DNA from: an uncultured Clostridia bacterium
Lineage (GTDB): Bacteria; Bacillota; Clostridia; TANB77; RGIG9151
Length of the DNA stretch: 54,819 bases
Reading direction: 5' to 3'
Assembly: GCA_934500865.1 (NCBI GenBank)
Contig: CAKSUD010000002.1
Location: 1 to 54,819 of the forward strand
How positions within the stretch are numbered: position 1 is the stretch's first letter; the number at the start of each line of letters is the position of its first letter. Position numbers and translations under genes: made by a program. Positions 4,426 through 34,920 of this stretch are shown here, piece after piece. Under the pieces are notes generated by a model. It was not told the DNA's origin. It searched no databases and saw only the letters and a list, made by a program, of their open reading frames with translations.

Positions 4426-4459
4426 AAGCCGTGTGAGTTCGAAAGACTCACGCACGGTT
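4426..4459 (+). ncRNA. Group II intron domain V (catalytic hairpin)
   Basis: The 34-nt sequence AAGCCGTGTGAGTTCGAAAGACTCACGCACGGTT has an AGC triad at 4427-4429 and a GAAA-containing loop. Its architecture matches the canonical DV consensus. A short hairpin (GCGAT...ATCGC) follows, consistent with domain VI, then the intron end. Confidence 0.85.
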
Positions 4460-4509
4460 TGAAGCGGGGGAAAATTTGGCGATTGCATCAAAGAATTACC
4501 TATCGCTAT

Positions 4510-11136: not shown

Positions 11137-11148
11137 TTGCATTGTGCA

Positions 11149-11177
11149 GGCAGAATGTTATGTCATTCTGCCTTTTT
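11149..11177 (+). terminator. Rho-independent terminator
   Basis: GGCAGAATG (11149-11157) pairs with CATTCTGCC (11164-11172) and TTTTT follows. Confidence 0.85.
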
Positions 11178-11300: not shown

Positions 11301-11334
11301 TTTTTTATGATTTAGCAACTAGGAGTTGTATGTT

Positions 11335-13242
11335 ATGAAATTACGATATCCAGCGGTACCTATTGTTACTTGTACCCCTGATTTTAGTCTTTGGTCGACA
11401 AGTAATAATTTGACCGACTCAGATTTACAGCACTGGTCAAATGCAAGACAGCCTTTAAGAGGTGTGCTTAAAATAGATGGTAAGTCTTATGGGTTTCTAG
11501 GTAATACCGAATGTGAAAAAATGACACAGACAAATTGTAATGTTGATGTGTTTTCTACGGTTTATAGCTTTACCGCAAACGAGGTGGATCTAACTCTTAA
11601 ATTTACAACACCACTTCTTTTGGATGATTTAAAGGTAATGGCAAGACCGATTACTTATGTTGATATTGAGTGTGTGCGTAAAGATGGACAAAATACACCC
11701 ACTACAGTAGAACTTACAATGTTTGACAACGTGTGTGTGTTTGAAGGCGAAGAAAATGCATCTGTTGCTTGGACATCAAATGAATATGGATGTGTTTCTG
11801 CAAAGGTAGGTAACAAGGAGCAGAAACCTCTTTCATACGATGGAGATATGAAACCAACTAATTACGGTTATGCTTATATATCCGTAATTGAAAATACCGA
11901 TAAAGCTTCTGCACACGTGAACAAACTTTCAGATAAGAACGAAAGACATAGCATAACAGTTTCTGCCACAACCAATGATGGTGGTAAGTTTAATTTTATT
12001 TTGGCTTATGACTCAATTTATTCTATTGAGTATTTTGGCGAAAAGCTTGATTGCGTTTGGAAAAATGAAGTCGACACAATGGAAAAACTAATATCTATTG
12101 CTTTTAAAGAGCGTGAGCATATTTTAGAACGGTGTCAAAAGTTTGCTGCGGAATTAAAGGATGAAGCAATTGAAGAAGGTGGAGAAAAATACTGTGACTT
12201 GCTTACTCTTGCGTACCGCCAGACAATAGGTGCTCATATAATGGCCGAGGATAATGATGGTAATGTGCTCTTTATTTCGAAAGAATGTGGTAGTGGCGCA
12301 CACGGTGCAACGGTAGATGTTACATATCCGTCAACACCTCTTTTCCTTAAATATTGTCCTGAACTTATAAAGGGAATGGTTAGACCAATTTTTCGTTATG
12401 CTAAAACAGAGGAATGGTCAAATCTTTATAAATTTGCACCCCATGATGCAGGCTTTTATCCGAAAATAAATGGTCAGACATATCCGGAGGGTAGAGGACT
12501 TGACGCTGAAACGCAGATGCCTGTTGAAGAATGTGCTAATATGCTTGTTATAAGTGCGACACTTTCCAAAGCTGACGGAAATGCAGATTTTGCAAAGACA
12601 GAACGTCCACTCCTTAAACAGTGGTATGATTATTTGCTTGAGTTCGGTTATGACCCCGGTGAACAACTCTGTACAGACGATTTTGCAGGAAGGCTTTCTC
12701 ACAACTGCAATCTTTCAATTAAGGCGATAATGGGTATTGCATCCTATGGAATTATTTGTGATTATTTGGGTGAAAAGGAAGAAGCTGAAGAAGCTATGAA
12801 TATTGCTAAGGCCTTTGCACTTAAGTGGGTAGAGGACGCAAAGGCAGAAAACGGAACCTATCGCTTGTCATTTGATATTTCTGATAGCTTTAGTTTGAAG
12901 TATAATGCTATTTGGGATATGCTTTTTGACACAGAAATTTTCCCGAAGGATTGCTTTAAATACGAACTTAAATCTTACATAACAAACCATATGGATAAAT
13001 ACGGGACGCCTCTTGACAATCGTAAGGACTATGCTAAATCTGACTGGATTTTATGGTGTGCAACTATGATGGAATCAAGAGAAGATTTTGAAAAAATGAT
13101 TTCACCTTTATGGGATTTTTATAATGAGTGTGAGGCAAGAATACCTATGACAGATTTATATCACACAAGCGATGGAACTGTTCAACAGTTTAGAAACAGA
13201 ACTGTACAAGGCGGTTTATTTATTAAACTTTTAAAGTTTTAA
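11335..13242 (+). CDS. Glutaminase-A-like putative glycoside hydrolase (DUF5127/DUF4965/DUF1793 architecture)
   Basis: The N-terminus LRYPAVPIVTCTPDFSLWS...HWSNARQPLRGVLKIDGKSYGFLGN matches the signature I recall for this family. The length is about 635 aa. AGGAG lies upstream, and TTG 11326 is an alternative start. Confidence 0.65.
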   Translation: MKLRYPAVPIVTCTPDFSLWSTSNNLTDSDLQHWSNARQPLRGVLKIDGKSYGFLGNTECEKMTQTNCNVDVFSTVYSFTANEVDLTLKFTTPLLLDDLKVMARPITYVDIECVRKDGQNTPTTVELTMFDNVCVFEGEENASVAWTSNEYGCVSAKVGNKEQKPLSYDGDMKPTNYGYAYISVIENTDKASAHVNKLSDKNERHSITVSATTNDGGKFNFILAYDSIYSIEYFGEKLDCVWKNEVDTMEKLISIAFKEREHILERCQKFAAELKDEAIEEGGEKYCDLLTLAYRQTIGAHIMAEDNDGNVLFISKECGSGAHGATVDVTYPSTPLFLKYCPELIKGMVRPIFRYAKTEEWSNLYKFAPHDAGFYPKINGQTYPEGRGLDAETQMPVEECANMLVISATLSKADGNADFAKTERPLLKQWYDYLLEFGYDPGEQLCTDDFAGRLSHNCNLSIKAIMGIASYGIICDYLGEKEEAEEAMNIAKAFALKWVEDAKAENGTYRLSFDISDSFSLKYNAIWDMLFDTEIFPKDCFKYELKSYITNHMDKYGTPLDNRKDYAKSDWILWCATMMESREDFEKMISPLWDFYNECEARIPMTDLYHTSDGTVQQFRNRTVQGGLFIKLLKF

Positions 13243-13281: not shown

Positions 13282-16086
13282 TTGCATAACAGAATTATGA
13301 ATAAAAGAATTTGTGCTTTGATTTGTGTAGTTGCTATCATTTTCTCGGCTTTATCCTGCGGATTAGTTGTAGTTGCTGATGATAAAAAAGAAAATATAAT
13401 AACAGTAGAGCAATACAATAAAAATGGTGTCAAATATACTTATCGCAACATATCGGATAATGGTTTGAAAATATCAAAGGGAGAAATTATCAGCGGTAAA
13501 TTCAATGTAGATAAAGCAGGCAACTATTATTTAAAAATTTACTATAAACAGGAAAATTCTGTTTATGGGATAACTAATGTGATAATAAGCCTTGATGGTA
13601 ACAAGATCTCAGAAAAGTATTTTTCATTGAAGCATATATGGCGTTATGCAGATGAGTATTTCGAGGATGCACAAAAAAATCAGATAGCACCAAAGCAAGA
13701 GCTTTATACCGATAAGGTATATGAGTTTATTTCTGATTCTGTTACTGATAACGCAGTAAAGTTTGAACTTTCTTCCGGTCCTCATGTCATAAGTGTTACA
13801 GCACTTGAGGAAGAATTTGTTATTTGCGGTATGGAACTTATCGAAATAACAAAAGCACCTACTTATGATCAATATTATAAATTATACGAAAGCAAAGGTG
13901 CTAAAAGGGTCGGCAAAGATGCTTCGTTTTATATTGAGGCAGAGGAAAAGGCTGTTAAATCTTCAAAGAGTATAGTAGTAGCTAATGACAGAAGCTCGGT
14001 GTCAGTAACACCGTATGATCCTGTTCTTGTTCGCTATAATGTAATAGGTGGTGATAGTTGGAACAGCATAGGTGACTGGATTGAGTGGACTGTAAAAGTA
14101 AAAGAAAGCGGCTTTTACGGAATTATGCTTCATGCAAATCAAAGTACAAAAATCAATGATAATTCATACCGGTGCCTTACAATAAACGGTAAAGTTCCCT
14201 TTAAAGAGGCAGAGCTTATAGAGTTCGTTTATGATAGAGGATGGAACAATATAGTTCTTGGAAATAAGAACGGAACTTACAACTTTTATTTTGAAAAGGG
14301 AAGGGAATATAAGTTAAGGCTTACCGCTTGTGCCGGTAAAACCAAGGAGCTTGTTGAAAGGGTATCGGAGCTTGTTACAGAGCTTAACAGGGACTATCTT
14401 GAAATACTTATGATTACAGGCTCATCTCCTGACATTTACCGTGATTATAAGTTTAAAAAAGTAATTCCGGATACACTCGAGAGCCTTGATAATATATGTA
14501 AAGAGTTGAAAAAGATAGAAGAGGAATGGTATAATTATTCCGAGGGCGGAGCCAGTCTTGCGGATATTCAGCAAATGTACGAGTTGCTTGAAGATATCGA
14601 AGAAGATCCGGATACATTAGCCTCAAGAATGAAACTTCTTACAAGCTATATTTCTTCTTTGCAGACATGGGTTTCAAACAGACAGGAACAACCGCTCAAG
14701 CTTGATTATATTTATATCTATTCCTTAGATGAAAAAATTGGCAATTCACAGGGCAACCTTTGGAAGATACTTTGGCATCATATACGTCAGTTTATCTCAT
14801 CTTTTACCACCGATTATTCGGCAATAGGTAACACCGAAAACACATTGGATAAAAAGCCAATAACCGTTTGGCTTGGTGCAGATGCAGCTATGATTTCTGC
14901 TACCACAGGCGGAACGGGCGGTCGTGACCAAGCACAGATAGTAACCCGTCTTACAACGAATGATTTTGTATCAACAAAGGGTATTCCTACTAAAGTTGAA
15001 CTTGTAAATGCAGGTACATTGCTTACAGCCGTACTTGCCGGTGTAGGTCCCGATGTAGCACTTGGTCTCAACCAAGCAACCCCTGTAAACTATGCACTTA
15101 GAAATTCGATTGTAGATTTAAGCAAATTAGAAGGTGTTGATGAAGTTTTAGAGCAATTTGACAAATCGGCATATGAGCCTTTTAAGTTGAACGGCGGCTT
15201 ATATGCTCTTCCGCAAAATCAGTCTTGGAATATGCTTTTTTACCGTAAGGATATTATAAAAAATCTTGGAATTACTACCGATGACCTTACTACGTGGGAT
15301 TCAATACTTAAAGATGTATTACCAATTTTGCAAATAAATTATCTTGAATTCGGTATACCGAATGAAATGGGTATGTATTTGTCATTTCTGTATCAGCGTG
15401 GCGGTCAGCTTTATTCTGATGACCATATGACAACCCTTATGAATTCACCCGAAGGTATATCGGCTTTTACAGATTATACAAATATGTTCCTTGAAAGCGG
15501 ACTGCCGGTAGCATATACCTTTGCTGACCGTTTTAGAAACGGTAGTATGCCTATCGGCGTTGCAGGTTATACAACATTTAACCAATTAGCAGTATATGCA
15601 CCCGAAATTGAAGGACTTTGGGCTATGCTTCCAATGCCGGGTACAATGCAGGAGGACGGTACTATAAACAATGTAACTACCACTTCTACCGAGGGTTGCG
15701 GAATCTTTAAAACAGATAACCTACAATCCTCTTGGGAGTTCTTAAAATGGTGGGTATCAGAAGAAACACAGCTTACCTTCTCACAGGAGCTTGAAACCTT
15801 GCTTGGTGCAGCAGGTCGAAATCCTACTGCAAATAAGCTTGCAAGAGAAAAACTGGGTTGGTCAGAAGAATTTAGAACAGCACTTATTAAGCAGTCTGAA
15901 AATCTTGTGGGTATACCTGAAATTGCCGGTGGATATTATACACCGAGATATTTTAGCTTTGCCTTTACAGATGTTGTTTACGGCGGAAAAAATGTTAACG
16001 AGGTTATAACACAGACTAAGAAGGAAATTGATGCAGAAATTGCAACAAAGACCGAAGAATTATTAGGTAAGGAGAAGAAAAAATAA
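13282..16086 (+). CDS. Giant extracellular solute-binding protein (N-terminal CBM-like region plus helical region, fused to a family-1 SBP domain)
   Basis: It has a signal/anchor segment ICALICVVAIIFSALSCGLVVVA. The N-terminal ~520 aa contain beta-sandwich-like segments. The C-terminal ~400 aa are typical of a sugar SBP (WLGADAA..., LYALPQNQSWNMLFYRKD). Its stop overlaps the start of the next permease gene (TAATG). ATG 13297 is an alternative start. Confidence 0.8.
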   Translation: MHNRIMNKRICALICVVAIIFSALSCGLVVVADDKKENIITVEQYNKNGVKYTYRNISDNGLKISKGEIISGKFNVDKAGNYYLKIYYKQENSVYGITNVIISLDGNKISEKYFSLKHIWRYADEYFEDAQKNQIAPKQELYTDKVYEFISDSVTDNAVKFELSSGPHVISVTALEEEFVICGMELIEITKAPTYDQYYKLYESKGAKRVGKDASFYIEAEEKAVKSSKSIVVANDRSSVSVTPYDPVLVRYNVIGGDSWNSIGDWIEWTVKVKESGFYGIMLHANQSTKINDNSYRCLTINGKVPFKEAELIEFVYDRGWNNIVLGNKNGTYNFYFEKGREYKLRLTACAGKTKELVERVSELVTELNRDYLEILMITGSSPDIYRDYKFKKVIPDTLESLDNICKELKKIEEEWYNYSEGGASLADIQQMYELLEDIEEDPDTLASRMKLLTSYISSLQTWVSNRQEQPLKLDYIYIYSLDEKIGNSQGNLWKILWHHIRQFISSFTTDYSAIGNTENTLDKKPITVWLGADAAMISATTGGTGGRDQAQIVTRLTTNDFVSTKGIPTKVELVNAGTLLTAVLAGVGPDVALGLNQATPVNYALRNSIVDLSKLEGVDEVLEQFDKSAYEPFKLNGGLYALPQNQSWNMLFYRKDIIKNLGITTDDLTTWDSILKDVLPILQINYLEFGIPNEMGMYLSFLYQRGGQLYSDDHMTTLMNSPEGISAFTDYTNMFLESGLPVAYTFADRFRNGSMPIGVAGYTTFNQLAVYAPEIEGLWAMLPMPGTMQEDGTINNVTTTSTEGCGIFKTDNLQSSWEFLKWWVSEETQLTFSQELETLLGAAGRNPTANKLAREKLGWSEEFRTALIKQSENLVGIPEIAGGYYTPRYFSFAFTDVVYGGKNVNEVITQTKKEIDAEIATKTEELLGKEKKK

Positions 16087-16982
16087 TGAAGCTTTCTTTT
16101 AAGAAAAATCGTGATGGAAGTTTTTCGTATGTAGCCTTAATGCTGCCTTATTTAATAATATTTTTCACATTTACCGTTTTGCCTGTTCTTATTTCAATGT
16201 TTTTAAGCTTTACAGATTTTAATGTAATGGAACTACCGGTTTTTACTGGACTTAAAAATTACCAGCGTCTGTTTATGGACGACCCGCTTTTTAAAACAGC
16301 ACTTACTAACACGCTTTTATTAGCTATTATAATAGGCCCTGGCGGTTACATACTTTCTTTCGGCTTTGCTTGGATTTTAAATGAATTTAATCCTAAACTT
16401 AGAAGTCTTTTGACGCTATTCTTGTATGCGCCTTCGATTAGCGGCGGTGCATATATGGTGTGGGCAATTATTTACAGTACTGACCGTTATGGTTGGCTTA
16501 ACAGTATTTTAATGAGCCTTGATATTATTTATGAGCCTATTGCTTGGACTACCGATACCAAATATATGTTCCCGGCAGCAGTAATATCTATTTTATGGAT
16601 GAGCCTCGGTACAAGTTTTTTGTCCTTTATTGCAGGTTTTCAGACTATTGACTCAAGGCTTTATGAGGCGGCAGCGGTTGACGGTATCAGAAACCGTTGG
16701 CAAGAGTTATGGTATATAACTCTACCTACAATGAAACCGCAACTTATGTTCGGTGCAGTTATGAGTATTACAGGCTCCTTCGGTGTTGGTGGTGAAATTT
16801 CAAGATTGTTCGGAAATCCCACAACAAACTATAAATTGTACACATTAGTTATGCAACTTGGTGACTATGGAACGAGCCGTTTTGAGATGGGTTACGCCTC
16901 TGCTATTGCTGTTGTACTGTTCTTCCTTATGATTGGTGCAAACGGACTTGTAAGCAAGATGCTTACAAAGGTTGGACAATAG
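16086..16982 (+). CDS. Carbohydrate ABC transporter permease (MalF-like)
   Basis: It has six TM segments and the EAA-type loop YEAAAVDGIRNRWQELWYITLP. Confidence 0.9.
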   Translation: MKLSFKKNRDGSFSYVALMLPYLIIFFTFTVLPVLISMFLSFTDFNVMELPVFTGLKNYQRLFMDDPLFKTALTNTLLLAIIIGPGGYILSFGFAWILNEFNPKLRSLLTLFLYAPSISGGAYMVWAIIYSTDRYGWLNSILMSLDIIYEPIAWTTDTKYMFPAAVISILWMSLGTSFLSFIAGFQTIDSRLYEAAAVDGIRNRWQELWYITLPTMKPQLMFGAVMSITGSFGVGGEISRLFGNPTTNYKLYTLVMQLGDYGTSRFEMGYASAIAVVLFFLMIGANGLVSKMLTKVGQ

Positions 16983-17013
16983 GAAATTTTAGAAAGGAGA
17001 AAAAGTTGTAAAT

Positions 17014-17883
17014 ATGAGGCTTGTAAATTTAATTACTAAAAAAAGCTTAAGTCGTTCTTTCGGCGGTACTATGGCACTACTTATCTTTATACTTTTGGTA
17101 GCAGCATTTATGCTCTTCCCAATGGTTTTGGTAATAGGCAACTCCTTTAAACCGCTTAATGAATTATGGCTATTCCCTCCAAGATTATTTCCTATAAAGC
17201 CAACAGTCAATAACTATCTTGACTTATTTAATTTGGTTGGTGACTCATTAGTTCCAATTACCCGTTATTTGTTTAATACAGTGTTCATTACTGTTGTTGG
17301 TACAGTATTACATATTATATTTTCTTCAATGTGCGCTTTTTCTTTGGCAAAGGGTAAATTTAGGGGTAGAGAAATTGTTTTTAAAATAATAGTTTTCAGT
17401 CTTATGTTCAGTGCTGCTGTTACAGCTATACCAAGCTATCTTATAATGGTAAAGCTTGGATGGATTGACTCACTTGCGGCTATTATAGTACCTGCTATCG
17501 GTTCACCGCTTGGCCTTTATCTTATGAAACAGTTTATGGAAACATCCATTCCGGACCAGATAATTGAAGCGGCAAAAGTTGATGGGGCAAGTGTATTTAC
17601 AATATTTAGGCGAATAGTTATGCCTAATACTAAGCCTGCTTGGATGACACTTATGCTGTTTTCTGTGCAGACTCTTTGGAATTTGGGTGCTAGCACATAT
17701 ATATTCAGTGAAGAAAATAAAACGTTAGTTTATGCACTTTCGCAAATTGCTGCGGGCGGTATATCCCGTACAGGTGTTGCAGCGGCAACTACCGTTGTTA
17801 TTATGCTTGTGCCGATAACAATATTTATTATAAGCCAATCCAATATTATGGAAACAATGGCAAGTTCAGGTATGAAGGATTGA
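17014..17883 (+). CDS. Carbohydrate ABC transporter permease (MalG-like)
   Basis: It has TM segments and the EAA loop IEAAKVDGASVFTIFRRIVMPNTKP. Confidence 0.9.
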   Translation: MRLVNLITKKSLSRSFGGTMALLIFILLVAAFMLFPMVLVIGNSFKPLNELWLFPPRLFPIKPTVNNYLDLFNLVGDSLVPITRYLFNTVFITVVGTVLHIIFSSMCAFSLAKGKFRGREIVFKIIVFSLMFSAAVTAIPSYLIMVKLGWIDSLAAIIVPAIGSPLGLYLMKQFMETSIPDQIIEAAKVDGASVFTIFRRIVMPNTKPAWMTLMLFSVQTLWNLGASTYIFSEENKTLVYALSQIAAGGISRTGVAAATTVVIMLVPITIFIISQSNIMETMASSGMKD

Positions 17884-17884
17884 G

Positions 17885-19969
17885 GTGAAACAGTTGAAGA
17901 AGATATTATCTATAATTTTGGCTGTTTGCTTTGCCGTACTTTGTATGTCCACTGCGGTCTATGCTGAAACGAGAAACAGTGCTGATTTAACAACTGTTTC
18001 TTACTCATACGATCTTTTGGATAGACCTTACGCAATACCCACACCATTTGTTTATTCTTATTCAATTAAGGGCGAAAGATTGGGCATTGGTTCTTTCAAA
18101 GGTGTATCAGATGTTTTTTATGATGATACAGATTCAACTATAATTATTACCGATAGCGGTAACAACCGCATAGTTATGCTTGACGGTGATATGGGTGTAA
18201 AAAAGCAGATAAGTGAATTTATTTATAACGGTAAAAAGGAAAACTTATCTAATCCTAAGAGTGCAATTATTAAAAGCGGTAAGTTATATATAGCCGATAC
18301 AGGAAATTCCCGAATAGTTGTTATGGAGCTTGACGGCAAAGTTATTACTGTACTAGAAAAGCCTAAAATCAATGCGTTAGGTAAGGACTATATTTACTCG
18401 CCTTATAAATTAGCGGTTGATGATGCAGGACATATTTATGTTGTTGCAAAGGATATTACAGATGGTATTATTTTGCTTGAGGCTGACGGTAAATTTATCG
18501 CTTTCTTCGGTGCACCTAAGGTTACAGTTTCTACTTGGGAGCAACTAAAAAAGCGTTTTATGACCAAGGAACAACGTAGTAAACTTTATAGCTCAATACC
18601 TACTGAATATAACAGTATAAGCATTGATAAAACTGGTTTTATTATAACAACCACACAATCGTTGGATGTTGCTCCGCTTTCAAGACTTAATCATATAGGT
18701 GAAAATATATTTGAAAAGAAATTAAATGTTCCTGCCGGTGATGAGGTTTACGCAAGTGTTTCTTCAACCTTTATCGATGCGGCAGAGGATAATTTCGGTA
18801 ATTATTTAGCGCTTGATAACCGTAGAGGTCGAATATTCGTATACGATAACAGCGGTACAATGCTTGCTTGCTTTGGCGGTAGCGGTGTGCAGAACGGTAC
18901 ATTCCATTCTGCTGACGCTATTGAAATGCTAGGCGAAAAAGTCGCTGTTGCTGATACTACGAGAAATACTATTGAGGTGTTTACTCCTACTGACTTTTGG
19001 TCTTGTCTGACTTCTGGCATTAAAAATATGAATGACGGTAATTATTCTGCTGCAAAGCCTTATTTTGAAAAGGTTATAAACCGTTGCTCTGCTTTTATTC
19101 CCGCACACTTGAATTTAGGTAGAATTGCTTATTCTGAGCAGGATTACCAGACTGCAATGAAGGAATTTAAGTATGCTGATGATAAGGATTATTATTCATT
19201 GGCATATAAGCAGGTAAGAAGTGATTTTATAAATAATAAATTTGGTATAGTTTTGGCGGTATTAGTTGCAGTAATAGTTCTTGTTGTAACGTATGTGAAT
19301 TTAGTTAAAAAATTTCCACAGCTTTCACTAACTTCAAAGCTTGCTGATAAACCGCTTTATAAAAAGTGGAAATATGTTGATTACTGTTCCTTCCATCCGT
19401 TTGACGGATTTTGGTGCGTAAGACGAGAGGGAATGGGTAGTCTTACAGTTGCAAACATAATTTTTGCTTTATTTATTCTGTTCTTTATGATAAGAACACA
19501 GTTTAGCTCATACCTGTTTAAAAACGGAAGTGAAAATGATGTTTTGGTACAGACACTCGGCATTGTTATACCGTTAATGTTATGGGTTATTATTAACTGG
19601 GCATTATCACCTTTCTTTGACGGAAAGGCAAGATTTAAGGATATGTATATTTCCATGTGTTACTCCTTAAAACCCTATTTACTTGCAAGTATTATTTTAT
19701 TCCCGCTAACCTTTTTCTTGGTTGCAGATGAAACTTTCGTTTATACAATTCTTGATAGCATTGTTTGGATATGGATGTTAGGTCTTATGTTCTTCGGTAT
19801 GATAACAGTTCAGGATTTCTCGCTTGGTAAAGGTGTTCTTAATACCGTGTTTACAATGGTTGGTATTGCACTTGTAGTGTTCTTGGGATTAATAATTGTA
19901 AATATTAGTCAGGAAATAATTACATATTTCACCGAGCTTATTTCAGAGGTTGAATACAGGATAACATAG
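17885..19969 (+). CDS. Secreted NHL-repeat beta-propeller / TPR / Yip1-domain polytopic membrane protein
   Basis: It has a signal peptide and NHL-like blades (ITDSGNNRIVMLD, IADTGNSRIVVME, VADTTRNTIEVF). A TPR-like segment and a TM helix follow. The C-terminus is a Yip1-type multi-TM domain starting HPFDGFWCVRREG. Confidence 0.8.
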   Translation: MKQLKKILSIILAVCFAVLCMSTAVYAETRNSADLTTVSYSYDLLDRPYAIPTPFVYSYSIKGERLGIGSFKGVSDVFYDDTDSTIIITDSGNNRIVMLDGDMGVKKQISEFIYNGKKENLSNPKSAIIKSGKLYIADTGNSRIVVMELDGKVITVLEKPKINALGKDYIYSPYKLAVDDAGHIYVVAKDITDGIILLEADGKFIAFFGAPKVTVSTWEQLKKRFMTKEQRSKLYSSIPTEYNSISIDKTGFIITTTQSLDVAPLSRLNHIGENIFEKKLNVPAGDEVYASVSSTFIDAAEDNFGNYLALDNRRGRIFVYDNSGTMLACFGGSGVQNGTFHSADAIEMLGEKVAVADTTRNTIEVFTPTDFWSCLTSGIKNMNDGNYSAAKPYFEKVINRCSAFIPAHLNLGRIAYSEQDYQTAMKEFKYADDKDYYSLAYKQVRSDFINNKFGIVLAVLVAVIVLVVTYVNLVKKFPQLSLTSKLADKPLYKKWKYVDYCSFHPFDGFWCVRREGMGSLTVANIIFALFILFFMIRTQFSSYLFKNGSENDVLVQTLGIVIPLMLWVIINWALSPFFDGKARFKDMYISMCYSLKPYLLASIILFPLTFFLVADETFVYTILDSIVWIWMLGLMFFGMITVQDFSLGKGVLNTVFTMVGIALVVFLGLIIVNISQEIITYFTELISEVEYRIT

Positions 19970-20012
19970 CGTAGGCTATATTCATTTTTTTAAAACAGAT
20001 AGGGAGGATAAG

Positions 20013-22538
20013 ATGAAGAGAATATTTGCATTGATTGTGGCAATTTTACTTTTACTATGCGGTTGCACACAGTCACAATCACCTTTGTCTGGAAATAGCG
20101 TCGAAAAGCCTAAAATCGACTGGAAGTCTGCCGAAACAGATATAAATATAGAAAACAATAATTTCAAGCTTTCTTTTTCGGTAACAAGCGGTGAACTTCA
20201 GATAACTAATAAGAGTACAGGTGCAGTGTTTTCGTCAAGGCAGGGAATATCTGCCGAAGAAGAATCAGCACTATCAGAGCTTGTGCTTACTTATTACGAT
20301 ACACAAAGCACAATTCATACTATGAATAGCTATACTAACTCAGTAAAGCTTGGTTCGTTTAAGGCTTTCAATACCGAAGATGCTATAAGAATAGAGTATG
20401 AATTTAATGAAAAAACTGCTGAGCTTTTAGTTCCTGCAGTTATGACAGTTGAAAGATATGAGGCAATCAGGAATGCCATTCCATCAAAAGATTTTCAAAA
20501 ACTTTCAATGTATTATGAGCTCATATATTCATCAGATAATACTTCTCGTGTTCAGGCCTTAAAAGAAAAATATCCGTATTTAAAGAAAAACGATTTATAT
20601 GTTGTTTTCGATAACCTTATGACAAACGAAAAGCAGAAAATTTCCAATATAATAAAATTGTCAGGTTACACGGCAGAAGAATATATGAAGGATATTGATG
20701 ATATGGGCATTAGCCGTGGCGAAATCAATATCCCCGTTTCCTTTAAGCTTCCTGTTGAGTTTTATTTAACGGATAATGGCTTGACAGTTGAGGCTTGCTG
20801 TAATGAAATAGAATATCCAAAAAGTCTTGCAACATTACAGTCGATTAAATTGTTTTCAGGCTTTGGTATCTGTGGTGAACGTGCAGAAAGCTTTATTTTA
20901 GCTGATGGTAACGGTAGTGTTTCCTTATTAGAAGAAAATGCTGATGAGTTTATTACAGTTCCTATTTATGGTGGCGACCTTACAGTTGCTTCTAAAAATG
21001 AAAGTAACCTTTCACAATCATATCGTCTACCTGTTTGTGGATATAACGCGAAGGGCGGCTCGTTTTTTGCAGTTGTTGATAGTGCGGCAGAGGCTGGGTA
21101 TGTAAATGCAGAGGTAAAGGGTACTACAAATAAATCTGATGCACTTTATTATTCCTTTGATATTGAAGCTATGGATAAGCTATCTATTAGACCCGGCTCT
21201 AATATATCTGATGTAAACTATTATTCGGGTAAGCAACTTACTGTTAATCCTGTCGTTAGCTACTACTTTACCGATGGTGTTTTAAATACAAAAGATCTTG
21301 CTTCAAAATATCGAGAGGTAGTAAACAATACATTAGATTTAAAGGATAAGAAGTCAAATGGCGACCTTATCTGGCTTGAATTTACAGGCTATGAAATGAT
21401 TAATACTACCGTAATGGGTGTTCCTACTCAGAAAAAGGTTGTTCTTTCAAAGCTTAGTGATATAGAAAAAGCTGTTAATGAACTTCATAATAATGGTGTA
21501 AAGGGACTTAATATCCGTCTTAAAGGCTTTGGAAACTATGGTGCTAATCACGCTGCAGCTAATACCTTCGAGCTTGATAAAGATGTAGGAACAGCTGACG
21601 AACTTAAAAGACTTGCAAAGACATTAAACGAAAACGGCGGAAAGCTTTATCTTGAAAACGATATTTCTTTTGCATATAAAGATTATTCGTTCGATGGTTT
21701 TTCTCCAAAAAATGATGCTGTATATTCGTTAAGTGGTTCACTGTGTTATAAATCGGATTTTGATTTGGTCGAGCTTGATTTTAAGAAGAAAGTAGATACT
21801 AAATATATAATTTCTTCACATAATTACCTCTCTTATATGAAAGGCTTTACCCAAAAGTATCTTAAAAAGATAAACGATAAGGATATAGGCGTTTCATGGA
21901 GTGCTGGCGGTAAATGGCTTTTCTCAAATTTTAATGATAAAAACGTATTAGACCGTACGGATGCTTTAAATAATACAGTTGCAACCTTAGAGTATTTAAG
22001 TAAAAACTATTCGTCTGTTATGACTGATGGCGGAAATTTATATGTTATTCCGTTTGCTGACTGTATAACTAATATACCGCTTTACAGTTCAGAATATTCG
22101 ATTAAGAGTTTCGAAGCACCGCTTTATCAGTATTTGCTTCATGGTATGGTTGATTATACTGGCGAATCTATTTCCACGTCGCTTTACAGTGATAAATTAA
22201 GGACAAGGTCAGTTTCTTTGGGTGCAGGTTTCTTATATTCTTGCGTAACCGAGGTAGATGCATACAGGGAACTTGATTCGTATAAAAGATCAGGCTTGTT
22301 TGCACCTGATATTACTACTCTTACAAATCAAATTATAGAAGACTATAAGCTTTATGGTAGCTTCTATAAACATAAGGCAACTTCGAAAATCACTTCAGTT
22401 TCGGAAATTTCGCAAGGTGTTATAAAAACTGAATATAGCAACGGGGATTTCAGTATTGTTAATGAAACTAATAAAACTGTTAATGTTTTAGATTTTGAAA
22501 TAGCAGCAAACAGTTCGTATTTATCGGAGGTGAAATAA
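20013..22538 (+). CDS. Large lipoprotein of unknown function (DUF5696-like by recollection)
   Basis: It has a lipobox LLLLCGC after an RBS GGGAGG and is 841 aa long. The family name rests on remembered co-occurrence with Yip1 proteins, not on a motif I can point to. Confidence 0.6.
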   Translation: MKRIFALIVAILLLLCGCTQSQSPLSGNSVEKPKIDWKSAETDINIENNNFKLSFSVTSGELQITNKSTGAVFSSRQGISAEEESALSELVLTYYDTQSTIHTMNSYTNSVKLGSFKAFNTEDAIRIEYEFNEKTAELLVPAVMTVERYEAIRNAIPSKDFQKLSMYYELIYSSDNTSRVQALKEKYPYLKKNDLYVVFDNLMTNEKQKISNIIKLSGYTAEEYMKDIDDMGISRGEINIPVSFKLPVEFYLTDNGLTVEACCNEIEYPKSLATLQSIKLFSGFGICGERAESFILADGNGSVSLLEENADEFITVPIYGGDLTVASKNESNLSQSYRLPVCGYNAKGGSFFAVVDSAAEAGYVNAEVKGTTNKSDALYYSFDIEAMDKLSIRPGSNISDVNYYSGKQLTVNPVVSYYFTDGVLNTKDLASKYREVVNNTLDLKDKKSNGDLIWLEFTGYEMINTTVMGVPTQKKVVLSKLSDIEKAVNELHNNGVKGLNIRLKGFGNYGANHAAANTFELDKDVGTADELKRLAKTLNENGGKLYLENDISFAYKDYSFDGFSPKNDAVYSLSGSLCYKSDFDLVELDFKKKVDTKYIISSHNYLSYMKGFTQKYLKKINDKDIGVSWSAGGKWLFSNFNDKNVLDRTDALNNTVATLEYLSKNYSSVMTDGGNLYVIPFADCITNIPLYSSEYSIKSFEAPLYQYLLHGMVDYTGESISTSLYSDKLRTRSVSLGAGFLYSCVTEVDAYRELDSYKRSGLFAPDITTLTNQIIEDYKLYGSFYKHKATSKITSVSEISQGVIKTEYSNGDFSIVNETNKTVNVLDFEIAANSSYLSEVK

Positions 22539-23447
22539 GTGAAATTTAATGTTTTAAAGTTAAAGCTATCCACCTTTGAATCAAAACAAAGAATATCGGG
22601 GTATCTGTTTTGTATACCGCTGATATTCGGTTTGATAGCATTCTTCATTCCAAATATAGTACGAACATTTATATTTTCAATAACTGATATGACCTTGACC
22701 GATAACGGTTTTGACCTTTCTTTTGCAGGTTTTAAACATTATTATACTGCACTTTTTTCTAACGAAAAATTTAACGGTTATGCCATTAAATCTCTTGGTA
22801 ATATGCTTCTTGATTTGCCGATAATACTCATTTTCAGTATATTTGTGGCAAGCGTTCTTAATAAAAGGTTTGTTGGTAGAACATTTGTAAGAAGCGTATT
22901 CTTCTTAACAATTATTTTGTCTACAGGTATTGTTACAACCGTTCAGTCGAGCTCGGAATGGGGACTTATGAACACAGGTGCTGCAGCTGACTTTTTAGAC
23001 CAGGGAGGGGCTAGTGCTTCAAAGATATTGGAGTCATTAAATCTCGGCGATGGTCTTATGAAGGTAATTACCTCGTCAGCAAATAAAATTTCTACAATTG
23101 TAACGGCTTCAGGAATGCAGATTTTACTTTTCCTTACAGCTTTTCAGGAAATTTCTCCTGAATATTATGAAGCCGCAGGAGTTGACGGTTGTTCGCAGTG
23201 GGAAATGTATTGGAAAATAACTATTCCGATTATGGCACCACAGATAGTTGTTAATGCAATTTACACTATTGCTGATTCTTTCATTCGTTCTGACAGTAAA
23301 TTATTTAATTATATTAATAGCTTAGCGTTTGGCGGCAATCAGTATGCACTTGCAATGGCAATGTATTTCATATATTTGTTAGCGCTGGCGATAGTGCTTG
23401 GAATTTTAACCGTGGCTTGTATTAAATTCCTTAAAGCAAGTAAATAA
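22539..23447 (+). CDS. Carbohydrate ABC transporter permease (second pair, MalF/LplB-like)
   Basis: The GTG start abuts the previous stop. It has TM segments and the EAA loop YEAAGVDGCSQWEMYWKITIP. Confidence 0.88.
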   Translation: MKFNVLKLKLSTFESKQRISGYLFCIPLIFGLIAFFIPNIVRTFIFSITDMTLTDNGFDLSFAGFKHYYTALFSNEKFNGYAIKSLGNMLLDLPIILIFSIFVASVLNKRFVGRTFVRSVFFLTIILSTGIVTTVQSSSEWGLMNTGAAADFLDQGGASASKILESLNLGDGLMKVITSSANKISTIVTASGMQILLFLTAFQEISPEYYEAAGVDGCSQWEMYWKITIPIMAPQIVVNAIYTIADSFIRSDSKLFNYINSLAFGGNQYALAMAMYFIYLLALAIVLGILTVACIKFLKASK

Positions 23448-23460
23448 GGAGGGAAATTGT

Positions 23461-24372
23461 ATGAAAATCAGAAATATAAGTTCAGTGACACTTAAAAAGT
23501 ACATATTAAAGACTTTGATTTCATTCTTTAGACTTCTTTTCTGCTTTGCAATGTGTTACATGATTTTAAAACCATTTGTTTCGCTCATACTTTCAGCTTT
23601 TATGTCACCCTCAGATTTGCTTGATATAAGGGTAGAAAAGGTGCCGCTTAAATGGAGCCTTTACTATTGGAAAGGTGCATGGGAAGGTCTTGGTTGGAGT
23701 ACAGCAGGTCTTAATTCCTTTATAACCGCAAGCGGTGTTTCAATACTACAAGTATTAACAAGTGTTTTGGTTGGTTATGGACTTAGCCGTTTTAAGTTTA
23801 AAGGCTCAAATCTTTTGCTTTTCGGTGTGGTTCTTACGATGATTATTCCTTTTCAGGTTTATAATATTTCACAATATTTAACTTTTAGGGATTTTCCCAT
23901 TTTTGGTAATCTTATAAACACACCTTGGTCGATGTTTATTTTGTCTGCTTCTTGTATGGGGCTTAAACACGGTGTTTATATTTATATTGTAAAGACCTTT
24001 TTTGACGGACTTCCTAAAGAAATTGAGGAGGCAGCATATATTGACGGTGCAGGTATTTTTAAAACTTTTACAAGCGTAATGCTGCCTAATGTACGAAATG
24101 TTATTGCAACAATTTTTTTGCTTTCTTTCTCTTGGCAGTGGACAGATACTGAATTTACAGGGCACTTAAATAATGTTGTTAATACATTACCTACACGAGT
24201 AACATCCTCATATATGCAGATGGCTACTGTTAAGTCCGCGCAGGATATATTAGGTACAACTATTGCGCAGGGTGCGGCAGTAATACTTATAATTTTGCCG
24301 CTTGTCGTTCTGTATATATTTTGCCAACGATCATTTATGCAAAGTATGTCACGTTCGGGATTGGCAAACTAA
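23461..24372 (+). CDS. Carbohydrate ABC transporter permease (second pair, MalG/LplC-like)
   Basis: RBS AAGGAGGG precedes the start. It has the EAA loop EEAAYIDGAGIFKTFTSVMLPN. Confidence 0.88.
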   Translation: MKIRNISSVTLKKYILKTLISFFRLLFCFAMCYMILKPFVSLILSAFMSPSDLLDIRVEKVPLKWSLYYWKGAWEGLGWSTAGLNSFITASGVSILQVLTSVLVGYGLSRFKFKGSNLLLFGVVLTMIIPFQVYNISQYLTFRDFPIFGNLINTPWSMFILSASCMGLKHGVYIYIVKTFFDGLPKEIEEAAYIDGAGIFKTFTSVMLPNVRNVIATIFLLSFSWQWTDTEFTGHLNNVVNTLPTRVTSSYMQMATVKSAQDILGTTIAQGAAVILIILPLVVLYIFCQRSFMQSMSRSGLAN

Positions 24373-24480
24373 CATATATGTATAATTACAAATATGGGGG
24401 TGGTCAATGCTCTTTTATTGATTTTGCCTTAAAAAAGATTTTTGAGGCACACAAAAAATTTAAGGAGATGTGGAATTATT

Positions 24481-25590
24481 ATGAAAAAGATTTTTAAGAC
24501 AACACTTGCAGCAATAGTTGCAGTAACTATGATTACATTAATTGCCGTTCCTGCCTTCGCTGCAACTCCTGCACCAAATTTTTCATCGGGTGAATATGTT
24601 GATTTAGTGCCTTTTATGGAAGAAGAAAAATATGGTAAGCAACAGGATGAAGAAGACGGTGTTCGTATGAATCTTACCAAAAAGAATAGTGGATATACTG
24701 CAAAGTTTAACAGTCAGGCAGTAAACTATGGTGTAAGGTTTAATACAGACATTTATAATCAAGACAGTGCTATGTTTGTACAGTGCGTACTTGATTCTGA
24801 GCAGGATTTATGGGATTCGGATAATGCAAGAATTTACGGCGGCCCCGTAATTCAGTTGGGTTATGGTAAAATAACACATCAGAATACTGATTGGAGTGGA
24901 TATTTTAGCCTTTTATTCACAGAACAAGACGGTATAGATTTAAGATTTTCTGATAAAATCGGTAACGACCTTGTTTATCTCGGCGCAATTACAAGCGGCT
25001 TAAAGGTCAATTATCCGGATACTAATTCTAAGAACCGCGGAAAAAAAGATTATTTAGTTCAAATTAAATTTTCAAAAAAAGATATAACAGTTTGGGTAAA
25101 TGGTATAGCTGTTATTGACGGTGTTAAGCTCAATAATTTGTATAACTCTACGGGTGCAAAAATACCTTGTACCGTTGAACGTCTTGAAGCGGGTATACAT
25201 GCAAATGCAACAAGAACAACAGTACACGATTTCCGTCTTTATTGCTTAAAGGCGGATGCTAAAGGTGCTGCACTTAACACACCGACAAATCAGGGTAGCA
25301 ATACAGGCACATCCTCCAATACAGTATCAAATAATAGCAATACCTCTGATACCAATTCAAATACTATGTCGGATACAACTTCTACAGATAATACAATTGA
25401 CAACACCAATAATACAACTGATAATGTTGATAATTTGGAAGTGAACACCGACAAGGACTATATTTTAGTTCGCGGTGACGAGGTTGAATTCTTCAATTGG
25501 CTAACACCGGTTATCATAGCTGCTATCGTTGTTTTTGCATTAGGTGCAGTTTGCATAGGAATAATTTTTATAGTTTCTAACAAAAAATAA
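24481..25590 (+). CDS. Cell-surface protein: signal peptide, one B-type beta-sandwich module, Ser/Thr/Asn-rich linker and C-terminal TM anchor
   Basis: The signal peptide is MKKIFKTTLAAIVAVTMITLIAVPAFA. The module contains ...YGGPVIQLG...FTEQDGIDLRFS...YLGAITSGLKVNYPDTNS...VWVNG. The linker is about 60 aa and N/T/S-rich. The anchor is VIIAAIVVFALGAVCIGIIFIVSNKK. Confidence 0.8.
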   Translation: MKKIFKTTLAAIVAVTMITLIAVPAFAATPAPNFSSGEYVDLVPFMEEEKYGKQQDEEDGVRMNLTKKNSGYTAKFNSQAVNYGVRFNTDIYNQDSAMFVQCVLDSEQDLWDSDNARIYGGPVIQLGYGKITHQNTDWSGYFSLLFTEQDGIDLRFSDKIGNDLVYLGAITSGLKVNYPDTNSKNRGKKDYLVQIKFSKKDITVWVNGIAVIDGVKLNNLYNSTGAKIPCTVERLEAGIHANATRTTVHDFRLYCLKADAKGAALNTPTNQGSNTGTSSNTVSNNSNTSDTNSNTMSDTTSTDNTIDNTNNTTDNVDNLEVNTDKDYILVRGDEVEFFNWLTPVIIAAIVVFALGAVCIGIIFIVSNKK

Positions 25591-25600: not shown

Positions 25601-28600
25601 ATGAGAAAGAAGCTACTTAAAGACATGTTTTGTGTTGTTTTAAGCATAGCCTTAGTGCTTACAAGTACTCAACTTTGGAATTTGGTTTTGGTTGCTTCAA
25701 ATGCTATTCCTAGTTTTGACGACGAAAAGCATAGCAAAGTTTTAGATGTGAGTTCAGTACTTTTCACGGAAAATAAGGTTACCTATCCGCTTGCCGATAT
25801 AAAAGATAAATCTAAGGCTACATTTTCTGAAACAACAATTGTCAGAAATGATAATAACATTTTAAATACAACACCTGTTATAATTTTGGCAGAAACTGAT
25901 TCTAATTTAACAGACGCAACAAGAGGGAATTTTAAAAACTCATATATTGTTATGTGGGCTGCAGTATCAGGTGGATATGCAATAGGTCTTCTCAATTCCG
26001 ATACTAACGGGCCTGCAGTTTTTCCTAACAGCTTTTTAAAGTTTGCAAACCAGCAAAGTCTTACAGGGTTCCCCGGATATTCGGGACAGTATCCAAACGG
26101 TGGTTATGCTATTCCGAATAATCTTAAGGTAACCGCAAAGGTTGAAGGCGGAAAACTTTCTGTTTGGGTTACTTCCGACGGAAACACAAAGGAAGTTTTA
26201 AGAGAATATAGTAGCAGTGACTATAATATTACAGGTAGTGCTGCAGGCTTCCTAATGTCGCAAAAAATCAGTAATAACTATAACTATTCTGCATTGGTTT
26301 GGACCGAAAAGAACAATGTAAACAACGGTATTGCAGATAAGCCGCAGTTTGATAGTGATACTCAGGTCATTGCTCAGGAAATCAAAAAATCCACTTTTAC
26401 AGAAACAAAAACTGTATATCCTTTGACTAATATTATTGATAAAAGCAAGATAACCTTTACAGAACAGGTTATACAGCGTGATGATAACAATGTATTAAAC
26501 ACAACACCAATTGTGCTTTTAGCAGAAACCGATTCAGATATAACTCACGATACAAGGGGTAACTTTAAAAATTCCCATATTGTTTTGTGGGCGGCAGCGA
26601 CGGGTGGCTATTCAGTAGCCCTTCTAAATTCTGACTGTACAGGTCCTGCTGTTTGGATAGATAGCTTTAATGAATTTGCAGGACAGCCTAGTGTTACAGG
26701 CTTTGAGGGCTGGGGTGGTGTCTACCCGAACGGTGGACAGATTCTACCCAACACTCTTACAGTAACAACAAAGTTTGAAAACGGTAAAATTTCTGTTTGG
26801 CTTACAGACGGTGATAATACTATTCAGATTTTAGCTAATTATAAAAGTGATAAATTTAATATCACAGGGGCGGCTATTGGTCAGCTCACTTCTCAGAAAA
26901 TTAGCAATAATTATAGCTACACAGCAAAAGCATGGACTGCTAAGGACAATTATTCAGAGGGATTACCAATATTTGATAAGAATATTCATACGGATATTCT
27001 TGATATGACAGGTATTGCTTCTGCAGATTGGGTTGGCTTTGAGTATAATGAAACCACAGGCGGTAAAATGTGGACTGATTTAATAAGCGGCGGTAATTCA
27101 TCGCTCAGAACAATCGACAGTACTCTTACATATAAGGCGGATAATATTTACGGAAGCGGCTCAATAAAATATAAGACTTCAGGTTATTTGCCTAATCAGG
27201 CTTATCACTATGCTTATATTGCAATAGCAAAAATATCTGAGGGCAGTAAGGTGGGTTATTTAGCTCTTAAATTTGCTGCAGGCGGACAGAGCGTTAAGCT
27301 TTCATTTATAACTCCGGCGGGTGAATCTACCGCTGAACATGCTGTATTAAGCACTTTTGGTAGTGTTAATACAAGTATCGGTACTACACATAGCTTTGCT
27401 TATAGAATTAATACCGAGAATCATTTATTAAGTATTTGGCTTAACGGTATTGCTGTTTTGACTGATTTTGTTATTGATTCAAAATATACAGTAGAGGACC
27501 TTGCGGTCGGCTCAGGTAGATTCTATGCAAGCTTTCAATTAGATAATTACAGAGTTTGGAGATCTGACCCTGTTCCTGAAATTATTATACCCGTTCCTGA
27601 ATTTAACCCTGAGACTGATGTTAATTTAGCACCCTATGCACAGGCTGCTGCATCTAATGTTTCTGGTGTATTAAAGGACGAAATGTTTATACTTTCTCAA
27701 ACTCAAAATATAATAGGAAGTGCCTTTTTCCGTAAGGTTAATTTAGAGGGCGATGGTACAATGTACTACCATGCCGTTATAAACAATGATATTAAAAACC
27801 ATTCAAGTGACGGTGTGTATGACGGTCCCTCTATTGCACTAGGTTCTGTAACCTATGATGAAAACGGCAAATCAGGTTATTTAGTATTAAGATTTACAGC
27901 ACAAGACGGTATTGACTTTAGAATTACTGCCAGAAACGGTACAGACGCCGTTTATTTAGGCGCTATTACAAGTATGAAGTTTAAATATCCTGATACGGAT
28001 AGCGCTGTAAGAAATGATGACACAAATTATGTGCTTGACGTTAAGATGAGCAGAAAATCAATTTCTGTTTGGGTTAACGAAAAGTGTATAGTAAATGATG
28101 TTAAATTTAATTCTTTTGGTGCAGATACCACCAAAAAGGTTACGGTAAATGACTTTATGCCGGGACTTATCTGTGTAAACTACACAGGTACAGTAAGTGA
28201 TTTCTGGTTCTGGTGCTCAAAAGAAGATGCACCCGAATTAAACAGCAGTGCTGCTGCAGAAAAACCTGTATTTAATAAGGAAACACAAACTAACGTTACA
28301 TCAAAAATGCTCGCAGTTATAGCAGGTAAAGATGGTGAATTTAAACTTGAAAAGAACGGTACACTTTCCATTAAGAGTAACAATGTAGGTGAAGGTGAAG
28401 GTACTGACAACGGTGCATATTTCAGTGCAGGTATTAAGAGAATTGGCACAATGTATATGCGTACTGTTATAAAGCCTGAACGTACCCTTGATGAAACTAT
28501 TGCTACAACAGCAATATATGGAGGTCCTGCAATAAGACTTGCCAATGCTACAGCTTCTGTAGATGATAGTGGTGACCAGCACGGATTCCTTGACATTCTT

Positions 28601-34899: not shown

Positions 34900-34920
34900 T
34901 TTTATTTGAGGCGATTTTTT

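Follow-up and report, generated by a model that had tools for sequence, protein, structure and literature searches.

A conserved two-module cassette of Bacillota, probably an ABC-type importer, with an NHL-TPR-Yip1 protein and a DUF5696 lipoprotein as candidate accessory subunits

What kind of machine is encoded by a set of importer genes that contains two channels, two large proteins of other kinds and no ATPase? This question is raised by positions 13282-24372 of a 54,819-nucleotide stretch of DNA from an uncultured Clostridia bacterium (contig CAKSUD010000002.1), which was analyzed as a whole and is termed the window in the following. ATP-binding cassette (ABC) importers are the main uptake route for fibre-breakdown products in Gram-positive bacteria of gut, rumen and soil and are seen as a solute-binding protein (SBP), two permeases and an ATPase. 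The best explanation of the seven-gene cassette described here is, in our view, an ancient and conserved bipartite glycan-import apparatus of Bacillota of the CUT1 type of ABC importers, a reading to which we attach a little more belief than doubt. That the cassette is a conserved functional import unit is very probable.

Seven genes in a conserved order

The cassette consists of the following genes, which fall into two modules.

13282-16086, plus strand: giant SBP (gSBP), 934 amino acids (aa), first gene of module A
16086-16982, plus strand: permease P1, MalF/UgpA-type, 298 aa, BPD_transp_1, translocator 1
17014-17883, plus strand: permease P2, MalG/UgpE-type, 289 aa, BPD_transp_1, translocator 1
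17885-19969, plus strand: NHL-TPR-Yip1 membrane protein, 694 aa, by Pfam, first gene of module B
20013-22538, plus strand: DUF5696 lipoprotein, 841 aa, by Pfam
22539-23447, plus strand: permease P3, MalF/UgpA-type, 302 aa, BPD_transp_1, translocator 2
23461-24372, plus strand: permease P4, MalG/UgpE-type, 303 aa, BPD_transp_1, translocator 2

All seven open reading frames (ORFs) are co-directional and tightly packed, with junction gaps of -1, 31, 1, 43, 0 and 13 nt in cassette order and a GGAGG-like ribosome-binding site at each. The start of P1 overlaps the stop of the gSBP gene by 1 nt and P3 begins right after the stop of DUF5696 (gap 0); in four related loci (L001, L008, L009 and L011) the genes of DUF5696 and P3 overlap by 4 nt. 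An earlier note on this DNA had described a seven-gene cassette with these products and had taken its tight junctions as the mark of a single unit. ORF coordinates and Pfam assignments agree with the description, and the single unit is borne out by a gene order that recurs in about 100 loci.

These related loci belong to Clostridia and Bacilli and carry the cassette genes in the same order beside different glycoside hydrolases (GHs). With about 100 independent loci sharing this order, a chance arrangement can be firmly dismissed. They were collected in several ways: a word-indexed protein search with DUF5696 returned 6 proteins, and the same 6 when repeated with their alignment; a single scan of genome contigs returned 2 loci; and a metagenome scan with two Yip1 motifs, taken from a 12-sequence sub-alignment, returned more than 526 confirmed relatives, from which 80 loci were kept and their ORFs classified by hidden Markov models (HMMs) built from the first loci. 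The order is the same in DUF5696-seeded contexts at 80%, 40% and 24% identity, in two metagenome-assembled genomes (MAGs) of Acutalibacteraceae and three further representatives of the DUF5696 family, as well as on plasmid pNP243 of Butyrivibrio fibrisolvens D1 and on a replicon of Paenibacillus cellulosilyticus. In the latter two RefSeq records the genes bear the names "extracellular solute-binding protein", "sugar ABC transporter permease", "YIP1 family protein" and "DUF5696 domain-containing protein". Contexts seeded with Yip1 (a Clostridia MAG, Paenibacillus sp. HJL G12 and an abundant gut lineage) agree.

Within the survey, DUF5696 follows Yip1 immediately in 66 of the 70 loci with room for it, the exceptions including broken ORFs, and DUF5696, P3 and P4 are complete in 44 of 45; all DUF5696-seeded contexts (9/9) lie in the cassette. 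The co-occurrence of Yip1, DUF5696 and sugar ABC genes, which the earlier note had mentioned, is thereby nearly obligate, and a lack of conservation as neighbours, which it had itself named as a refuting outcome, is clearly not what is found. Flanks of at least 5.2 kb on both sides are available for 30 survey loci, 22 of which are canonical, 2 permuted (module B before module A) and 6 reduced to module B; two further permuted loci have shorter flanks. Module A thus consists of gSBP-P1-P2, and module B, NHL/Yip1-DUF5696-P3-P4, is the invariant core. Of the layout proposed earlier, two permease pairs and two large proteins remain, but the picture of pairs flanking these proteins gives way to two modules whose order can be swapped and of which B can stand alone.

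The enzymes near the cassette vary from locus to locus: GH13 in the window, and GH43, GH38, GH26, GH1, GH31, GH2, GH29/GH123, apiosidase-like or flavin oxidoreductases elsewhere. Since the neighbouring enzymes differ, the cassette is a generic transport module rather than part of one pathway. A physical partnership of its products is favoured because their genes are near-obligate neighbours under changing cargo, DUF5696 and P3 appear to be translationally coupled, and neither a DUF5696 nor an NHL-Yip1 gene was found outside the cassette among about 100 contexts.

The same neighbourhood might also arise from co-regulation without any complex, with DUF5696 as a tethered glycosidase, the NHL-TPR-Yip1 protein as an independent glycan-binding or cell-wall protein and the permease pairs as two importers for two product sizes. 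Polysaccharide utilization loci (PULs) of Gram-positive bacteria routinely mix enzymes, transporters and regulators (PMC5320581), the predicted fold of DUF5696 is glycosidase-like, and with ordinary SBPs standing beside module B, P3-P4 could be a standard importer (both points are taken up below). PUL enzyme genes normally shuffle freely, however, whereas the cassette order is kept almost without exception over class-level divergence (DUF5696 identities of 20-25%) while the surrounding enzymes change; the start/stop overlaps between DUF5696 and P3 recur, and the absence of free-standing copies among about 100 contexts points in the same direction. We regard co-regulation alone as unlikely, although it retains real weight.

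With respect to transcription, the cassette genes are probably co-transcribed. A terminator scan revealed no convincing terminator between them, the sole strong one being located at 11148-11173, ahead of the upstream GtaA-like gene. Promoter and terminator scans did not rise above shuffled expectation and give no support to internal transcription units. The GtaA-like gene itself (11326-13242, plus strand) encodes a six-hairpin protein of 638 aa with the domains DUF4964-DUF5127-GtaA_6_Hairpin, in which hydropathy finds no signal peptide. It lies just past the strong terminator and 39 nt upstream of the gSBP gene, and it is probably the first gene of the cassette transcript.

Permeases, binding proteins and the ATPase

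All four permeases match BPD_transp_1 above the Pfam cut-off and carry EAA loops of the type EAAxxDG (EAAAVDG in P1, EAAKVDG in P2, EAAGVDG in P3 and EAAYIDG in P4). The best NCBIfam matches are UgpA/MalF-like for P1 and P3 and UgpE/MalG-like for P2 and P4; in detail, P1 is UgpA/GlcT/PotB-like, P2 UgpE/GlcU/MalG-like and P4 MalG/UgpE-like. Across loci, permeases of the same slot share 44-72% (P1), 37-75% (P2), 30-64% (P3) and 31-67% (P4) identity. Between slots, P1 and P3 are about 25-40% identical over part of their length, and P2 and P4 about 25%. A recent tandem duplication of the pairs was considered and rejected, given that the two pairs share only about 25% identity and that the genes of each slot are orthologues in the different loci; for the same reasons the duplication must be ancient, with all four slots kept. 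The cassette hence has the MalF/MalG-type (BPD_transp_1) membrane subunits with EAA coupling loop of a CUT1 importer. It also has binding proteins of the SBP_bac_1/8 class, namely the C-terminal half of the gSBP and, by family HMM and hhalign, the product of 33529-34899. By its permeases and binding proteins, as read from sequence, it belongs to the CUT1 type I importers, and transport activity itself is predicted.

The gSBP is of unusual composition, as Pfam SBP_bac_8/SBP_bac_1 spans the C-terminal residues 567-836 only. Its parts are:

aa 13-31: N-terminal signal/anchor helix
about aa 40-190, nt 13399-13851: beta-sandwich module 1, resembling a carbohydrate-binding module (CBM)
about aa 215-355, nt 13924-14346: CBM6/35-like module 2
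about aa 356-520, nt 14347-14841: helical/coiled-coil region
aa ~525-930, nt 14854-16083: type-I sugar SBP fold

The nearest solved relatives of the C-terminal half are oligosaccharide/sugar SBPs (Lin1841, 5ysb, E 3.8e-12). Module 2 matches the CBM35 of a GH66 cycloisomaltooligosaccharide glucanotransferase (5x7g, E 1.6e-6), other CBM6/35 entries being weaker, and the helical region matches coiled coils only. The N-terminal extension of 520 aa is kept in all cassette copies that were aligned (10 loci), and the gSBP is always followed by P1-P2, in permuted loci too.

The earlier note had named one binding protein, the gSBP; the window encodes a second one:

33529-34899, plus strand: second SBP lipoprotein of ordinary size, 456 aa, lipobox LFTGC, 9 kb downstream of P4

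This lipoprotein has no match in Pfam, NCBIfam or PDB sequences. An HMM built from nine SBPs of ~430-460 aa that adjoin module B in other loci recognizes it (E 1e-35, 120 bits) but not the gSBP, and hhalign aligns it with the gSBP alignment at 73% probability (E 3e-5, 218 columns). As both methods place this protein, the window has two binding proteins for two channels. Ordinary SBPs of 430-500 aa (Pfam SBP_bac_1) are often located beside module B and form one family of 24-54% identity, which is present in 19 of the 36 loci with enough flank (B-only 6/6, permuted 3/4, canonical 10/26), usually right behind P4 or immediately ahead of the cassette. The lipoprotein at 33529-34899 is, on these similarities, the probable binding protein of module B, and the gSBP would then serve P1-P2 and the ordinary SBP P3-P4.

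The MalK/MsmX-type nucleotide-binding subunit of a CUT1 importer is absent from the window, so that the transporter is incomplete and needs a host ATPase. Pfam found no ABC_tran in any ORF of at least 150 aa, a six-frame scan of the window found no LSGGQ, the only in-frame Walker A belonging to TraG/VirD4, and a MalK/MsmX-type ATPase used as hmmsearch query had no match among the window ORFs of 100 aa or more, even at E<=10. Nearly all homologous cassettes likewise have no ATPase gene. The exception is P. cellulosilyticus, where a gene annotated as ugpC, whose product contains ABC_tran, OB_MalK and TOBE_2, is located directly upstream of the gSBP gene. Multitask ATPases of the MsmX/MsmK type are shared by several sugar importers and also function with permeases from other species (PMC7658222). 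Because such ATPases serve foreign permeases, a transferred cassette without an ATPase is expected to function, and the feature is ordinary. The absence seen in the earlier note therefore stands, but its being notable does not, shared ATPases being usual (PMC7658222) and most homologous cassettes lacking one.

NHL-TPR-Yip1, DUF5696 and the proposed mechanism

The 694-aa protein was assigned by Pfam to Yip1 (PF04893; 41.3 bits versus a cut-off of 28.6, residues 504-667), to NHL and, weakly, to TPR. It is built as follows:

aa 40-368, nt 18002-18988: six-bladed NHL beta-propeller, preceded by a signal peptide
aa 370-451: TPR-like helices
aa 453-476: anchor transmembrane helix
aa 503-510, nt 19391-19414: FHPFDGFW motif in a basic cytoplasmic linker with short helices
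aa ~518-693: five-helix Yip1 bundle

The membership in the Yip1 family rests on a score above the gathering cut-off and on five helices after the anchor helix, seen both by hydropathy and in the AlphaFold2 model. The resulting topology is a signal peptide, an extracellular domain, one transmembrane helix, a cytoplasmic linker and five more helices (six transmembrane helices in total). The AlphaFold2 model, calculated from a 63-sequence alignment, has a mean pLDDT of 86. In Foldseek, its propeller resembles NHL domains (TRIM71, Thin, Brat; E 1e-15, TMt 0.75-0.79); every match falls on the propeller, and the search gives no informative solved structure for the Yip1 bundle. Conservation is highest in the cytoplasmic FHPFDGFW motif, with which the Yip1 domain begins, and NW..TLMDGEG comes next; H504, P505, G508, N571 and W572 are conserved in 63 homologues.

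One clade has the gene split after the anchor helix into two that overlap by 4 nt, one encoding NHL-TPR-anchor (~500 aa) and the other the Yip1 bundle (~210 aa) (loci L007, L011, L017, L018, L035, L036, L043, L064, L066, L067, L072, L074, L075, L079 and L093). Among its members are B. fibrisolvens and a human-gut lineage of very high abundance, the NHL protein of which occurs in 106 indexed blocks of the contig collection. A frameshift artefact as the origin of the split NHL/YIP1 genes of Butyrivibrio was rejected, as the split recurs across the whole clade. Since NHL-TPR-anchor and Yip1 are separate genes there, the two halves work as separate polypeptides.

The 841-aa protein matches Pfam DUF5696 at E 1.4e-95 and starts with the lipobox LLLCGC. 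Its predicted layout comprises an N-terminal beta-sandwich with a helical insert of ~100 aa, a (beta/alpha)8 barrel that begins near aa 450 and, at the C-terminus, a beta domain. The family is large, with about 5,056 representatives at 50% clustering and E<=1e-3, and 3,015 at E<=1e-30. An 85-sequence DUF5696 profile run against PDB sequences found the GH129 enzymes ZgGH129 (3,6-anhydro-D-galactosidase; E 3e-10) and NagBb (alpha-N-acetylgalactosaminidase; E 1.3e-9), and a 12-sequence profile matches GH129 at E 6e-8. The similarity to GH129 extends over three co-linear segments, which lie in the N-terminal sandwich, at the first strands of the barrel and in the C-terminal domain. Foldseek with the AlphaFold2 model, which was built from a 6-sequence alignment, is of low confidence (pLDDT 55) and has a poorly predicted barrel half, ranked GH129 first (E 1.7e-20, TMt 0.55), followed by GH101 and then GH36/GH13/GH31. 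At profile level a remote similarity to GH129/GH101 is accordingly present, and DUF5696 is, judged by profile and fold, a remote relative of these families; it forms a Pfam family of its own and is not filed as a GH129/GH101 member, because its catalytic residues are putative.

Within 42 non-redundant cassette-linked DUF5696 sequences, D639 (41/42), R648 (42/42) and E735 (40/42) of the barrel are near-invariant, as are N675, H710 and N721, and the PDGSG loop (D298) is invariant in 85 sequences. D639, R648 and E735 could fill the roles of an Asp nucleophile and a Glu acid-base. An enzymatic role is possible for the family, the odds being slightly unfavourable, and less likely for the copy of the window.

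In the apparatus that we propose, the gSBP of module A would capture a large glycan or oligosaccharide by its CBM-like modules, helical spacer and sugar-binding fold and hand it to P1-P2. P3-P4 of module B would form a second channel with two dedicated accessories, NHL-TPR-Yip1 and DUF5696. At the membrane surface, the latter would serve to bind the glycan or to trim it; the Yip1 helices would provide a membrane scaffold and the propeller/TPR ectodomain would hold partners or substrate, in analogy to the Bacillus protein YknW. The 456-aa lipoprotein would act as the binding protein of module B and a host-encoded MalK/MsmX-type "multitask" ATPase would power both channels. We give an even chance to a physical association of the Yip1 protein and DUF5696 with P3-P4 as accessory subunits. 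As three giant GH13 enzymes belong to the cargo, alpha-glucan is the likely substrate in the window.

Several points weigh against this apparatus. Conserved adjacency, from which the association of the proteins is proposed, could reflect co-regulation only, and over half of the canonical loci have no ordinary SBP within their flanks, which makes the pairing of SBPs and channels uncertain. YknW belongs to a MacB-type exporter and not to a type I importer, and the alpha-glucan substrate is putative. Concerning DUF5696, the confidence of the model is low, and the catalytic residues of GH129/GH101, which we take from the naming in PDB entries to be D486 in ZgGH129 and D764 and E796 in SpGH101, could not be aligned to it; a 42-sequence barrel-only profile aligned the beta2-alpha2 part of NagBb only. 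Finally, the DUF5696 copy of the window has N639 and S735 in place of the near-invariant D639 and E735. A relative of 91% identity shares both exchanges, one of 80% has only S735, and D and E are found in the 40% relatives. Of the two exchanges, S735 is the older in this sub-clade, and H796, which covaries with E735 family-wide, is V in the window copy. If D639 and E735 are catalytic, the sub-clade of the window may recently have lost activity, with the gene still intact and in place.

Such a loss of acidic residues in an intact gene is what a non-catalytic role predicts, and it would suit a sensor or gate, in which the NHL-TPR ectodomain senses glycan with DUF5696 as co-receptor, and the Yip1 bundle and FHPFDGFW regulate P3-P4 or signal to the regulator of the locus. 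NHL propellers and TPRs are ligand- or partner-binding modules, the cytoplasmic juxtamembrane motif is the most conserved stretch of the protein, and regulators (AraC, or a histidine kinase with response regulator) are found near most cassettes. However, NHL-TPR-Yip1 has no recognisable signalling output domain, and the regulators differ in type and position and stand outside the conserved order, and we consider a sensor quite improbable.

The import apparatus could be taken one step further, to a stable surface supercomplex or Gram-positive "utilisome", in which a Yip1 bundle clamps two ABC translocators, the propeller-TPR arm and the CBM-bearing gSBP hold a polymeric glycan, and the GH129-like lipoprotein processes it or threads it over P3-P4. 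This extension is tentative and rather doubtful as a whole. If true, type I ABC importers would gain a class of accessory subunits not known before, and bacterial NHL-Yip1 proteins and DUF5696 a first function.

Gene surroundings and comparison with known systems

The window locus as a whole is a large Gram-positive PUL (gpPUL) by the definition of Sheridan et al. 2016 (PMC5320581), with GHs, the ABC cassette and an AraC regulator. It contains an AraC regulator (5840-6688), a deacetylase, two GFO/IDH/MocA oxidoreductases, a sugar-isomerase-like TIM barrel, GH39-like, GtaA-like and rhamnosidase-like proteins and three very large GH13 enzymes. Among these genes are:

7749-8747 and 10120-11136: GFO/IDH/MocA oxidoreductases
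34906-35751: xylose-isomerase-like TIM barrel
29239-33426 (1395 aa) and 44617-50502 (1961 aa): GH13 enzymes with 3-keto-disaccharide-hydrolase-like (DUF1080) domains

The oxidoreductases, the TIM barrel and the DUF1080-bearing GH13 enzymes hint at an oxidative (3-keto-glycoside) step in alpha-glucan breakdown. One related locus (L094) has the cassette together with the same GH13+3keto-disac_hyd type. In P. cellulosilyticus (NZ_CP054609, 5828-25148; locus L008) the cassette is followed by three LLM-class flavin oxidoreductases and two further SBPs, without glycosidases, which suggests a non-standard substrate.

This P. cellulosilyticus locus, with oxidoreductases instead of glycosidases as neighbours, would also fit an involvement in endogenous surface glycans, i.e. 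the recycling or remodelling of wall polysaccharide with the GH-like lipoprotein acting on the cell's own polymer. Eukaryotic Yip1 proteins act in membrane trafficking, and NHL/TPR proteins occur in envelope processes. Yet nearly all cassettes are surrounded by secreted GHs for dietary or plant glycans and by sugar-responsive regulators, and the permeases, with their EAA loops, belong to the class of type I importers and have binding proteins beside them; endogenous glycans are thus a very improbable target.

Further observations concern the remaining cargo. Three paralogues without a Pfam family above cut-off (24442-25590, 25601-28990 and 42955-44523, plus strand; 382, 1129 and 522 aa) share a domain of 30-40% identity with weak hints of 3keto-disac_hyd and PA14, the 382-aa protein having transmembrane helices at both ends. 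The genes of the 382- and 1129-aa proteins are located directly after P4 in the window and in its closest relatives (L001, L003 and L004), and they may be lineage-specific surface additions to the cassette. The rhamnosidase-like six-hairpin gene (35801-37927, plus strand) overlaps by 113 nt a 172-aa ORF (37815-38333, plus strand) without Pfam match, which could be a frameshifted C-terminal domain or have a mis-called start.

A conjugative element forms the context of the window locus, as indicated by a Toprim protein, an intron-split TraG/VirD4 gene, a serine recombinase and a pemK RNA. The TraG/VirD4 gene (468-5246, plus strand) is divided by a group II intron into an N-part at 468-1811 (T4SS-DNA_transf, Walker A at 948) and a C-part at 4476-5246; the RNA domains of the intron lie at 1884-2087 and 4424-4509 and its reverse transcriptase ORF at 2506-4380. 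Near the 3' end of the window, a second, weak match to group II intron D1-D4 (50632-50819), the pemK RNA (52053-52121), a small sigma-70 region-4 protein (51311-51880) and a large serine recombinase (52570-53754) probably mark the end of the mobile element carrying the locus. The location on a conjugative element suggests that the whole uptake module can move and use the ATPase of a new host. The cassette is not a trait of mobile elements as such, since it is also found on chromosomes and on large non-mobilizable plasmids of many taxa.

With this fixed module, a propeller/Yip1 protein, a glycosidase-like lipoprotein, a second channel and a CBM-bearing gSBP are added to the importer kit. If the accessory proteins are subunits, the architecture of type I ABC importers is wider than assumed, bacterial Yip1 proteins (NHL-Yip1) and DUF5696 obtain a first function, and the capture of large glycans by Gram-positive bacteria without a Sus-like outer-membrane system finds an explanation. 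As the cassette occurs in the culturable P. cellulosilyticus KACC 14175 and B. fibrisolvens D1, the question is directly testable. In agreement with the earlier note, no paper on the cassette or on DUF5696 was found in the literature searched, 8.3 million papers of which none contains the name DUF5696; it omits most subscription journals, so that a description could exist.

Compared with characterised CUT1 importers (MalEFGK2 or the MsmX-dependent AraNPQ of B. subtilis), the cassette shares SBPs of the SBP_bac_1/8 type, MalF/MalG-type heterodimers with EAA loops and the reliance on a shared ATPase. It differs by two fixed permease pairs and by a double-size SBP with CBM-like modules and a helical spacer, and no counterpart of the NHL-TPR-Yip1 or DUF5696 genes was found in the characterised CUT1 systems. 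The only known precedent for a scaffold role comes from YknWXYZ, where a Yip1-family protein is likewise encoded with an ABC transporter: YknW of Bacillus modulates the assembly of the ABC pump YknXYZ (PMC4887032). However, YknYZ is a MacB-type exporter with a membrane-fusion protein and YknW is a small, Yip1-only protein, whereas the cassette encodes an importer and its Yip1 protein carries a propeller-TPR ectodomain of 450 aa; by Pfam, the window contains no MacB/FtsX-type permease, membrane-fusion protein or ATPase of this kind.

GH129 and the GH101 endo-alpha-N-acetylgalactosaminidases, the top structural matches of the DUF5696 model, share the domain order predicted for DUF5696. DUF5696 departs from them by an identity of only about 10%, the helical insert, the lipid anchor and its fixed place in a transporter operon, and the residues of the "HLD" strand of NagBb correspond to R-L-K. 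With the Sus-like "utilisome" of Bacteroidota the cassette shares a functional logic, in which genes for glycan-binding proteins of the cell surface, for a GH-like surface lipoprotein and for a transporter stand together and are combined with variable enzyme sets. There is no homology between the two; the cassette relies on ABC import, has neither outer membrane, TonB-dependent transporter nor SusD, and a complex of its products is putative. The gpPULs of Roseburia and Eubacterium rectale, finally, are loosely defined, whereas the cassette is a fixed transport module of 7-8 genes within many different gpPULs.

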